Positions 31,149 through 49,795 of a stretch of 64,000 nt of DNA are shown piece by piece; the first letter of the stretch is position 1, and the number at the start of each line of letters is the position of its first letter. A program made the position numbers and the translations under genes. The notes under the pieces are model-generated. The model worked only from the letters and a program-made list of their open reading frames with translations. It was not told the DNA's origin and searched no databases. Source of the stretch: Octopus vulgaris (lineage: Eukaryota). The stretch covers positions 40,982,001 to 41,046,000 of the forward strand of contig OX597817.1 in assembly GCA_951406725.2 (NCBI GenBank). Direction: 5' to 3'.

Positions 31149-31494
31149 TTAGAAGTAAAGGTTCTTAGTTTGAATCCCATCCAGTATTGTGTGTACATCA
31201 AGGAATAAAACATCTGATGATGATTGTAGGTAAAAAATGTAGTGGAGATGTAAATAGTAAATGTTTCACCTGTCAAGCTGAGGTTAATAGTCCAAAAAAT
31301 TATAATCTTATTAACAATAAACAAGCATTTAGTTAATCTTCCTGTTAGGTTTGGTCATGCATATTGACAAGGTAACAAGATTTCTGTGCCTGTTTGAATA
31401 TAATAATATTGCTGGTGAGGTGCATCAATTGTTTCAATGAATTAACAGTTAAAGTATAAAAGAGTACTGCAATTTGTTTGAAGCATTGCAATGT

Positions 31495-31765
31495 CATCAT
31501 CATCATCATCATCATTTAACGTCCGTTTTCCATGCTAGCATGGGTTGGACGGTTCGACCGGGGATCTGGGAAGTCAGAAGGCTGCTCCAGGCTCCAGTCT
31601 GATCTGGCACTGTTTCTACAGCTAGATGCCCTTCCTAATGCCAACCACTCCAAGAGTGTAGTGGGTGCTTTTTGTGTGCCACCGGAACAGGGGCCAGGGG
31701 AGGCTGGCAACGGCCACGATTGGTTGGTGCTTTTTATGTGCCACCGGCACGGAAGCCAGTCAAGG
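31495..31765 (-). mobile_element. 3' end of the abundant (GAT)n-tailed retroposon (family D), fused to U6
   Basis: Ends ...CCAACCCATGCTAGCATGGAAAACGGACGTTAAATGATGATGAT; closely matches copies at 49316 and 46346. Confidence 0.85.
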
Positions 31766-31870
31766 AAAAATGTGGAACGCTTCACGAATTAGCATGTCAT
31801 CCTTGCACAGGGGCCATGCTAATCTTCTCTATCGTTCCAATTTTAGAATATGTACTGCCGTAGATAGTAC
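31766..31870 (-). pseudogene. U6: U6 snRNA processed pseudogene, near full length
   Basis: Reverse complement reads GTACTATCTACGGCAGTACATATTCTAAAATTGGAACGATAGAGAAGATTAGCATGGCCCCTGTGCAAGGATGACATGCTAATTCGTGAAGCGTTCCACATTTTT. The ACAGAGA box has a 2-nt deletion, and the copy is fused to a retroposon 3' end. Confidence 0.95.
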
Positions 31871-33440
31871 GATGTGTAAATATATTTTGAAGAAGATCTT
31901 TAGACAATAAATGAGAATAAAGACAAGACATTGTATTACCATATATAGGTTGCTTAATGTGTCTCAGGCACATGGTTCAGTGATTAGAGCATTTGGCTCT
32001 CAATCATGAGGTAGTGAGTTCAATTCCCAGATTGGGCTGTGTGTTGTATTCTTGAGCAAGACATTCTGTTTCAGTCCACTCAGCTGCAGGAAATGAGTTG
32101 CAGTGTCACTGGTGCCAAGCTGTGTCAGCCTTTGCCTTTCCCTTGGGTAACATTGGTGGTGTGGAGAGGGGAGGCTGGTATGCAAGGGAGACTGCTGGTC
32201 TTCCATAAACAACCTTGCCTGGACTTGTTCCTCGGAGGGTAACCTTCTAGGTGCAATCCCATGGTCATTCATAACTGAAGGGGCTCTTTTTAATGCTTCT
32301 TTTATATTGTGGGAAAGCATCATTATCATAATTTAATCCTTTAGCCATGAGATTATTCTTTCAAATGTAATGCTTATTTATTCACATTGTTTTGATTTAA
32401 TTGTGCATTATCTTGTAGCTTCAAGATTTTGACAATATTTATTTTTTAAATGTCATTGTAGGGTATGTGAAAGATGCCAAATTTGGCCATTTTGAGTATA
32501 AAACAGGTAGAATATTTGGGCCAGAGATTGCCAGTTTACATACTAAAGGGTTAATGTCCATGTTTCTTGCTAGCATGGGTTGGATGGTTTGACAAGGATC
32601 CAGTGTGTCCAAGGACTGCATCGTGTTCCAATGTCTGTTTTGGTATGGATGTTACCCTAGATGTCCTACCTCACACTAACCATTTTACAGCATGGACTGA
32701 ATGCGTTTTTGCATACCATCTGCACTATTGAGGTTGCTATGCAGCTTGCAGAACTACAAACCCTGGGGTAGGGGAATGAGGGAAAAAATGAACAGTAGGA
32801 GCTATAAGAGATAGATAATGGTGATAAGGTGCTTGGGTGGCCCCTCAAGGGGAGTTGAAGAATCAGTTTGTAAGATTGTTTAGGAAGGAGAATGAGGTGG
32901 TGGAGGTAGACTGCCAAAATTGGTAGGGTTGAAGGGTGCCAAGCAAGGAACCTTGAGTTGGTGAAGATAGAGGGATGCAAAGGAGTTGGGGTCAGGATGC
33001 AGCAAAAGCAGTAACAATGATATTGCAGTGAGTGGAAGGACAAGAAAGAGATGACCTGGTTAGGTCATCTGCAGGAGCTGGGGCTGGGGTGTTTAAATCA
33101 AATGTAAAATAGAAAAATCACCCAAGAGTTTGGAGAAAAAAGTATTATTATTATTTGCAGGCTGAAATATAATAGAAGTATTAAACAATCTATGTAGGAT
33201 GACACACTATCTTGTCTGTGCTTTTATTTATTGGCATCACCTTACATATTGTGTCTAACTTCTAACCTGCGTTACTTAAAGGTCAGCTTAGAAATATTTA
33301 TATCTGTTAAAATGTAACTACATTTGTATTCATCCACCACCAAGTCAGCATGAATATTCTTTTTAAAAATGTGCTATCAAATTAGTATTTCTGATTTTCG
33401 TTGTTATTGACTGTTTCCCTATTTTTTTACTCATTTTTAG

Positions 33441-35477: not shown

Positions 35478-35792
35478 ATTGCTTCTACGAAGCCCAACAC
35501 TTGAAAGGAACTCAGCCACTTAGCTTCCGTGAAGCCCCACATTCGAAAGGAACTCAGCCACTTAGCCTCCTTGAGGCCCAACACTCGAAAGGACCTCAGC
35601 CACTTAGCCTCTGTGAAGCCTAATGTTCGAAAGGAACTCAGCCACTTAGCCTCTGTGAAGCCTAATGTTCGAAAGGAACTCAGCCACTTAGCCTCTGTGA
35701 GGCCCAGTGCTCGAAAGGAACTCAGCCACTTAGCCTCCGTGAGGCCCAACGCTCAAAAGGATCTCAGCTACTTTGCCTTCGTGAGGTCCAAT
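35478..35792. repeat. 42-bp minisatellite, about 7.5 copies, inside a family-D element
   Basis: Unit GAAAGGAACTCAGCCACTTAGCCTCTGTGAAGCCTAATGTTC; GAAAGG recurs at 35629 and 35671. Confidence 0.9.
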
Positions 35793-48320: not shown

Positions 48321-49315
48321 ATACCAAGTGCACTAAACATGTGTTCACTCTAAAATTAGTGGCTGATGTAGTGTGACGTGCCTATTATTAGATTGAAGGT
48401 CATGTCACTCATAAACAAAACTGCGGTCGTGAGTAAACTGCAATGTCTGGTTGGCATGCTTTTTGAGTTTCTTTTTATGCAGACCTCATACATGAAGTAG
48501 ATGATTCTTCCTCAATAATTTACTTTAAAGCATTGCAATACCAACATTTCCAAACATGGATTTTGTTGCCATTTATCAAAAATGAATCTTTGCTACCATT
48601 AATATTTTCCTCAGGCCAGACGAAATAAATCATCTCAGATTTAGAACAATATTTCCTGTAATCGTTTGTAGCTTCAAAATGTAAGATGAGTAGAGCTTCA
48701 TAGGTTATAATACAACTGCGGCACTACAAGTAGCCATTCATCAGAATATGTTTGTTTGAAATGATATACATTTACTTCTGTTTGGCCAAGCTATCATTGT
48801 TATCATCTTACCACTGTTTACATTCTGAACACTATCAGCTTTCCACAATCAGCTTTAAAGTAACTGACTTTAACATATTTTAACCATGTTACCTCTCAGT
48901 ATTTCTTATATCCTTCTGTTTCTAGATTTCTTTTAAAATACAATTTGTTTTGATTAATTTCGTAAATAATGAAGTTAGTAAAATAACTTTGTCTTTATTA
49001 AGCTGCTGTTTGGAACCTAAGTTTGTATGAAATTTTGGTGGAAGGTTTTCATTTAAATCCCCTGAAGGTTGCATTGTAGAATCAAGGCTGGTTTCTGGTG
49101 GTTTGCTTTCAAAAGGGTTAAACTGAATCATTGTTTCATGTCTTAAATTTCCATATTGAGATTAGGAGTGTTACTAAATGTATTGGGTTTCTTTTTAAAC
49201 TTCCTAAATATCTTTCTCTTGGAATTTCCTATTTTTCTATCTGACGGCACCTTGTGTCCTTGCACAAGACACTTTTTTCACGTTGTTTCAGTTCACTGAG
49301 CTGGCAAAAATGAAT

Positions 49316-49795
49316 TCATCATCATTTAATGTCCGTTTTCCATGCTAGCATGGGTTGGACGGTTTGACCGGGGTCTGGGAAGCCAGGAGACTGCACCAGG
49401 TTCCAGTCTGATCTGGCAGTGTTTCTACAGCTGGATGCCCTTCCTAACACCAACCATAGTGAGTGTAGTGGGTGCTTTTTACATGCCACCAGCACAAGTG
49501 CCAGGGGAGGCTGGCAACGGCCACAATTGGTTGGTGCTTTTTATGTGCCACCGGCATGGAAGCCAGTCAAGGTGGTGCTGGCATCGGCCATGTTCAGATG
49601 GTACTTTTTACGTGCCACTGGCACAGGTACCACAACTACAATTTCCATTTTATTTTTATTTAGGTCTCCTCAAGCACAGCAGGTCGCCCTCTGATCCAAG
49701 GTACTTTGGATGGTCTGGGGCTGCTATGTGAAGCTGGTGCAGGTAATAGCCATGAACTCACGTTATATGTCGGGTCTTTACAGTCACAGCATATT
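49316..49795 (-). mobile_element. Family-D (GAT)n-tailed retroposon, longer copy
   Basis: Shared 3' end. Other copies at about 7693(-), 16295(-), 18830, 19330, 26246(-), 30187(-), 35230(-), 36608, 39130, 44281, 46346(-) and 55620. Confidence 0.8.

Follow-up and report, generated by a model that had tools for sequence, protein, structure and literature searches.

We analysed a window of 64 kb, the whole stretch of DNA considered here, from the 2.8-Gb genome of Octopus vulgaris. The only Rfam match in the window was a U6 snRNA at 31766-31870 on the minus strand, which covers model positions 1-105 of RF00026 (100 bits, E 9e-25). Behind its 3' end lies a 272-nt repeat that ends in (GAT)7. The features of the locus, and the copy of the repeat used for comparison, are as follows.

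31491..31494, no strand: ATGT, possible 4-nt target duplication on the left, matching 31872-31875 at chance level
31494..31515, minus strand: (GAT)n tandem-repeat tail of the LINE (TRF period 3, 7.3 copies, (TCA)7.3)
31516..31765, minus strand: 5'-truncated 3' UTR of a probable RTE-type LINE with internal repeats of about 62 nt (89% identity to longer copies contiguous with RT)
31766..31770, minus strand: 3' U-tract of U6, five T, directly adjoining the LINE piece (sequence and junction alignment)
31766..31870, minus strand: full-length U6 snRNA retrocopy, predicted to be inactivated (RF00026 1-105, 100 bits; alignment to gene copies)
31872..31875, no strand: ATGT, second half of the possible 4-nt target duplication, 1 nt away from the 5' end of U6 (sequence)
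49313..49794, minus strand: copy of the same LINE that is longer but also 5'-truncated (ORF end and 3' UTR), reference for the truncation point

At the junction (31765/31766) five T on the U6 strand are followed by LINE-templated sequence, so that a U6 with an intact 3' end is joined directly and in sense to a 3' piece of the LINE with its tail. This agrees with the preliminary description, in which a U6 with its U-tract was said to be fused to a 5'-truncated (GAT)n element at this position. Longer natural copies of the LINE show CA or CG just upstream of the junction point; therefore the junction in the window has neither microhomology nor an extra base. The preliminary description had also pointed to a copy near 49316-49795 that continues past this point. 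We located it at about 49313-49794, where it is 89.6% identical to the LINE piece of the chimera and extends beyond the junction, which is therefore a truncation point. Folding gave no pairing between U6 and its partner across the junction in the window (z +1.3).

Compared with the nearest gene type, the U6 in the window differs by six substitutions and has lost 2 nt from the ACAGAGA box. The 80 nt upstream lack the motifs common to the U6 gene copies L002, L004, L009 and L057, which we take to be octamer-like and TATA elements. The copy is therefore a pseudogene, predicted to be non-functional; a functional gene, considered as a candidate, was ruled out by the box deletion and the missing promoter motif. 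The lack of a gene-type promoter upstream also suggests that the U6 part was derived from RNA. Decay was alike in both halves of the unit, with 6 substitutions per 105 nt in U6 and about 10% pairwise in the LINE piece. An unrelated tRNA-type SINE (class C) lies at 31967-32290 on the plus strand, about 95 nt past the 5' end of U6 and on the opposite strand, and a tandem array with a 42-bp unit (7.2 copies, 88% matches) occupies 35489-35791.

The partner of U6 had been described as a retroposon. It is indeed a repeat, with about 20 fragments that include the tail region within the 64 kb, but it was found to be the 3' UTR of an autonomous LINE and not a SINE. In longer genomic copies (L036, L039 and L244) this 3' UTR is contiguous with RT-coding DNA, and the coding sequence matches PF00078 (E 4e-23), with L1 and R2 reverse transcriptases as the best PDB matches. 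A 679-aa ORF piece of the LINE aligned over 618 aa (E 4e-56) to a second ORF of the genome, presumably RTE/BovB-like from its motifs, and over 243 aa (RT core only, E 4e-24) to a CR1-like ORF. The LINE also has the short 3' UTR and the tandem-repeat tail of the RTE clade. Because of this longer alignment, together with the 3' UTR and the tail, the partner is assigned to the RTE type, as had been guessed from its tail; the assignment reflects pairwise ORF likeness rather than comparison with named references. No full-length copy of the LINE was found in three extended loci, the longest open piece being that of 679 aa. The RTE-type ORF at L244:4206-6242 (minus strand) has a Cys/His finger inserted after the RT core, and among the Atlas look-alikes of this ORF RVT_1 is paired with PHD in 38-52% of members.

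Next we classified the 3' flanks of a sample of U6 loci, as the preliminary description had proposed for the genome. A 20-mer from the U6 3' end has 256 exact matches. We took the 30 loci that scored best with Rfam, 90 of the first 100 exact matches listed, and the window; removal of seven duplicates left 114 loci. Nine of these read as genes and five were set aside as segmental duplicates of one chimera, leaving 100 independent non-gene loci. A same-strand LINE or SINE partner was found directly behind U6 in 86 of the 100 (82 by BLAST and four by eye), in a sample that is biased to young, 3'-intact copies. The remainder were one antisense partner and 13 other structures. By chance, 2.1% of the strand positions of the window would have the start of a sense-strand partner within 24 nt, as computed with the same partner library, which was drawn from the chimeras themselves. 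As a mirror control, the region upstream of U6 gave a partner at 7 of 114 loci, mainly through dinucleotide-repeat matches. No partner stood behind any of the 47 gene-read loci (9 U6, 14 7SL, 23 U5 and 1 U6atac), a class that rested partly on having none. Judged by this sample, most of the at least 256 U6 3' ends would be chimeric.

The partners of the 86 chimeras were 8 RTE-type LINEs, 28 CR1-like tails and 50 SINEs. The SINEs comprised 37 of SINE A (24 with intact heads, 8 with the tail only and 5 with other truncations), 11 of SINE B and 2 of SINE C, and a SINE with an intact 5' head was the partner at 37 of the 100 loci. All eight U6-RTE junctions differ and therefore represent independent events, not a SINE family; besides the window, three of them (L022, L030, L093) are clean. 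The U6 parts of the chimeras derive from different gene variants, and the T-run at the junction varies from 0 to 9.

Several other arrangements of U6 were observed. A tandem cluster of seven U6 genes (L009-L013, L057, L063) lies at C1:139.42-139.43 Mb, with two dispersed genes, of different 5'-stem variants, at L002 and L004; the octamer-like and TATA motifs lie upstream of the genes. Through a segmental duplication of about 20 kb, one chimera of U6 and a SINE tail exists in six copies (L051-L056, C1:132.42-132.53 Mb). An inverted partial U6 copy lies upstream of U6 at L019, L095 and L129 (also at L103 and L111), and a related AT-rich 3' flank is common to the first three; these loci are possibly a separate U6-containing repeat or products of twin priming. 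At L070 and L078 two U6 copies follow each other head to tail and meet at the U-tract, which suggests repeated jumping onto a further U6. Three-part units of a SINE B piece, U6 and SINE B were seen at L074 and L025, and a duplication of about 24 nt seems, by eye, to surround all three parts at L074. At L068, L107, L112 and L117 U6 is joined to sequences outside the partner library, of which that at L117 resembles, on visual inspection, a further piece of CR1-type coding sequence.

The same kind of partner was also found behind other small RNAs. RTE, CR1 or SINE partners followed U6atac at 26 of 30 loci (one of them weak), dispersed 7SL at 10 of 11 and dispersed U5 at 2 of 3; an RTE tail was the partner in one U6atac and one 7SL case. 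The joints of U5 copies, and of 7SL copies with a retained U-tract, are the same as those of U6. Chimera formation in the O. vulgaris genome is thus neither U6-specific nor RTE-specific. The earlier proposal that a non-L1 machinery, possibly RTE-driven, makes U6 chimeras here held in its reading of the unit as a chimera and in its RTE guess, with the correction that other small RNAs and other partners take part too. Small-RNA retrocopies seem to exist mainly as chimeras in this genome.

The short tails were identified as the 3' end of a young CR1-like LINE, a link demonstrated for subfamily B alone, and SINE A terminates in a near-identical tail; an earlier assignment of the tails to an R4/Dong element was dropped, the parent being CR1-like, and a ribozyme reading was set aside. 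In all 24 U6 chimeras of the CR1-like and SINE A tail classes at most 5 nt are templated upstream of the GGCGG anchor, which places the junction at the base of a predicted stem (z -2.5). Within subfamily B the cut lies at the stem base in 16 of 16 U6-linked tails and in 7 of 28 ordinary copies (Fisher p 6e-7). Among ordinary copies of SINE A, the tail still adjoined the body in each of 32 listed out of 38, and the base counts for the whole set of 38 agree. At 19 of the 24 CR1-type tail junctions extra bases follow the T-run, and these could come from SINE 5' leaders, from U6 tailing or from later mutation. The CR1-like family (L149-L161, L247, L248) has copies up to 99.7% alike with long open frames, and a 27-mer of its tail occurs 7989 times. 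At L138:1390-1560 a T-run terminates the 5' half of a tRNA-type SINE, which is fused there to a CR1 tail at the stem-base junction, a candidate intermediate of a new SINE.

Flanking sequences were compared for target site duplications (TSDs). At the window locus the best matches were only 4-5 nt, which is chance level because 8 of 37 ordinary copies of the RTE-type LINE gave matches of at least 5 nt in the same test. A match of 4 nt encloses the whole unit of U6 and LINE, and one of 5 nt, placed 3 nt away from the junction, encloses only the LINE piece. No TSD of at least 8 nt was found around 37 ordinary copies or 8 U6 chimeras of this LINE, and a missing visible TSD in the window is normal for it. 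Automatic calling gave 9 TSDs among the 86 chimeras (null 3.3%), four of which (L025, L028, L089, L122) were discarded on visual inspection because of low complexity or a shared tail. At L008, L014, L102, L130 and L106, U6 together with its partner is enclosed by TSDs of 11-16 nt. The first four of these are SINE B chimeras, unlike those with RTE and CR1 partners in having such TSDs, pointing to a third mobilising LINE. A search with the left flank (4 of 24 runs) did not reveal the empty site. In it, contigs of organisms E and F align to 31483 and continue for 195 and 127 nt; a contig of organism D ends 35 nt on and one of organism C ends at 31412. The continuation in E and F is at most a hint that these two lack the LINE tail, and it is given no weight as evidence.

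We consider it highly probable that the full-length U6 and the last 270 nt or so of the RTE-type LINE became one chimera in a single event. A single event is favoured because partners lie behind U6 at 86 of 100 loci against the 2.1% background and 7 of 114 in the mirror control, because all 86 are in sense against one antisense, because gene loci have none (0 of 47), and because long TSDs enclose U6 with its partner at five relatives and the halves in the window decayed alike. Most of these observations weigh against two events, in which a LINE inserted at the 3' T-tract of an existing U6 pseudogene or the order was the reverse: the gene loci offer the same T-tract and were not hit. The LINE is very dense in the window, and the whole unit lacks a significant TSD while a 5-nt match flanks the LINE piece alone, as separate insertions would allow; however, matches of this length also flank 8 of 37 ordinary copies, and the relatives have TSDs around the entire chimera. 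We regard two events as improbable. More improbable still is that the unit belongs to a SINE family with a U6 head and an RTE tail that was amplified as a unit. Small, undescribed 'U' and 'U-L1' SINE classes exist in the O. vulgaris annotation (PMC13282606, Table 1), and small-RNA heads on RTE tails are known, for example in the hagfish 7SL SINE (PMC7245038). The diversity of the eight U6-RTE junctions largely refutes this reading, the U6 parts come from different gene variants, and U6 lacks an internal promoter that would by itself support transcription (PMC6789731).

For the single-event chimera, the route that we favour is a template jump. The LINE protein would bind the 3' end of its own RNA and, from the (GAT)n tail, start DNA synthesis at a nick in the target, and the reverse transcriptase would arrive at the 5' end of a truncated LINE RNA. 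It would then jump end-to-end onto the U-tract of a free U6, probably aided by a non-templated A on the cDNA, and copy U6 to +1; the piece would integrate with little or no target duplication and later decay. In vitro, R2 RT jumps only from the template 5' end and adds 1-5 non-templated nt (10.1101/2021.04.30.442027). That the window junction was made by a jump from a broken LINE RNA to the U6 3' end seems to us probable, if by no means certain, and the likelihood of a jump over prior ligation is higher for the SINE- and CR1-linked relatives than for the window locus. Jumping is favoured as the general route because of the intact SINE heads, the extra bases, the T-runs of 0 to 9 and the joints of 7SL and U5.

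In mammals, U6 and U6atac are the two RNAs with cyclic-phosphate ends; 7SL and U5 have no cyclic phosphate, and SINE RNAs carry a 5' triphosphate. These chemistries bear on a join made at the RNA level, in which a nuclease-cut LINE RNA with a 5'-OH would be ligated by RtcB to the 2',3'-cyclic phosphate of U6 and the hybrid then retrotransposed. RtcB and USB1 genes were both found in the genome (exon-wise matches, one locus each), U6 and U6atac form many chimeras, the three other clean RTE junctions resemble that of the window, and the constant position of the junction at the base of the CR1 stem might mark a site of nuclease cleavage. Intact SINE heads at 37 of 100 loci, extra bases at 19 of the 24 junctions with such tails, and the 7SL and U5 chimeras with joints like those of U6 are not easily explained by ligation; given the mammalian end chemistries, these heads and bases, the T-runs of 0 to 9 and the U-tailed 7SL fit it poorly. 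The window junction fits both a jump and a ligation: it has five T, shows no added base and leads into a truncated LINE, like U6/L1 of mammals (PMC6789731). Prior ligation is for this locus a possible, on the whole rather doubtful, origin. The same source gives a 2',3'-cyclic phosphate and a 5'-OH as the substrates of RtcB, with ligation strongly lowered by a 5' triphosphate.

Comparable chimeras have been described in vertebrates. Doucet et al. (2015, PMC4476161) reported U6 chimeras with L1, L2, RTEX-2 and AnolisSINE2 in Anolis, U6-L2 and U6-Mon-1 in platypus and tentatively U6-RTE in opossum, in a survey of 48 vertebrates only. The octopus chimeras are like these in that the U6 3' end is joined in sense to a 3' piece of a LINE or SINE, in the use of non-L1 'stringent' LINEs, in short or absent TSDs and, as in platypus (40 of 47), in that most U6 retrocopies are chimeric (PMC4476161). 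They differ in the invertebrate host, in a U6 that is mainly full length (5'-truncated in platypus), in the fixed stem-base junction at CR1-type tails, in the many full-length SINE partners and in 7SL, U6atac and U5 with the same joints (PMC4476161). In comparison to mammalian U6/L1 (Moldovan et al. 2019, PMC6789731), the full-length U6, the short T-tract and the variably 5'-truncated LINE are shared, whereas the octopus partner is RTE-type with (GAT)n, not L1 with poly(A), and has no long TSD; the extra bases of the relatives and intact Pol III SINE heads are not predicted by the RtcB ligation model of that work. Law and Burns (2025, PMC11838501) list fusions of human L1 with 7SL, Y, 7SK, tRNA and Alu; there too a range of small RNAs other than U6 was captured on the 5' side of a LINE piece, but for human L1 only and not for RTE-type, CR1-type and SINE partners. 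R2 RT jumps from a template 5' end to the 3' end of another RNA and adds non-templated bases, in keeping with the intact heads and the extra bases in octopus (10.1101/2021.04.30.442027). This was shown in vitro on the R2 enzyme; for the RTE and CR1 enzymes of octopus it is a proposed route.

Template switching in SINE assembly is discussed in PMC7245038 and PMC4758252, and PMC9115989, in its available part, describes an RTE LINE and not chimeras. The O. vulgaris repeat paper lists the 'U' and 'U-L1' classes, its main text, as far as available, being silent on snRNA and chimeras (PMC13282606). No report of U6-LINE chimeras in octopus or another invertebrate was found in the literature searched, which was mainly freely available main texts; the supplementary material of PMC13282606 and of PMC4476161 may also bear on this point. 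The preliminary description had proposed non-L1 chimeras by analogy with the U6-L1 chimeras of mammals. U6-RTE, L2 and SINE chimeras were already published for vertebrates, among them lizard and platypus (PMC4476161); what is new is the invertebrate host, the scale and the junction data that bear on the mechanism.

The window locus itself is ordinary, a dead copy, and its worth lies in giving access to a large natural data set. Chimeric retrogenes are reportedly known in a fungus (PMC2104539). To our knowledge, RT jumping versus RtcB ligation has been tested for human L1 only. The genome-wide pattern in octopus makes this question testable outside human L1, as the SINE heads, the extra bases, the 7SL partners and the fixed CR1 junction give separate predictions for each route.

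For the genome as a whole we put forward a broader proposal, which we hold to be as apt to prove wrong as right. The RTE-type, CR1-type and SINE-mobilising reverse transcriptases would routinely jump onto abundant RNAs with free 3' ends (U6, U6atac, U-tailed 7SL and U5) with no need of RtcB, and the CR1 jumps would start from a tail fragment of about 55 nt ending at the base of the 3' stem-loop, probably a protein footprint. The finding extends the phenomenon to an invertebrate and reveals raw material for new SINEs. If the proposal is true, hundreds of junctions would be an in vivo record of template jumping, and not ligation alone, making small-RNA chimeras, and the junction set would be a snapshot of new SINE heads being tried.
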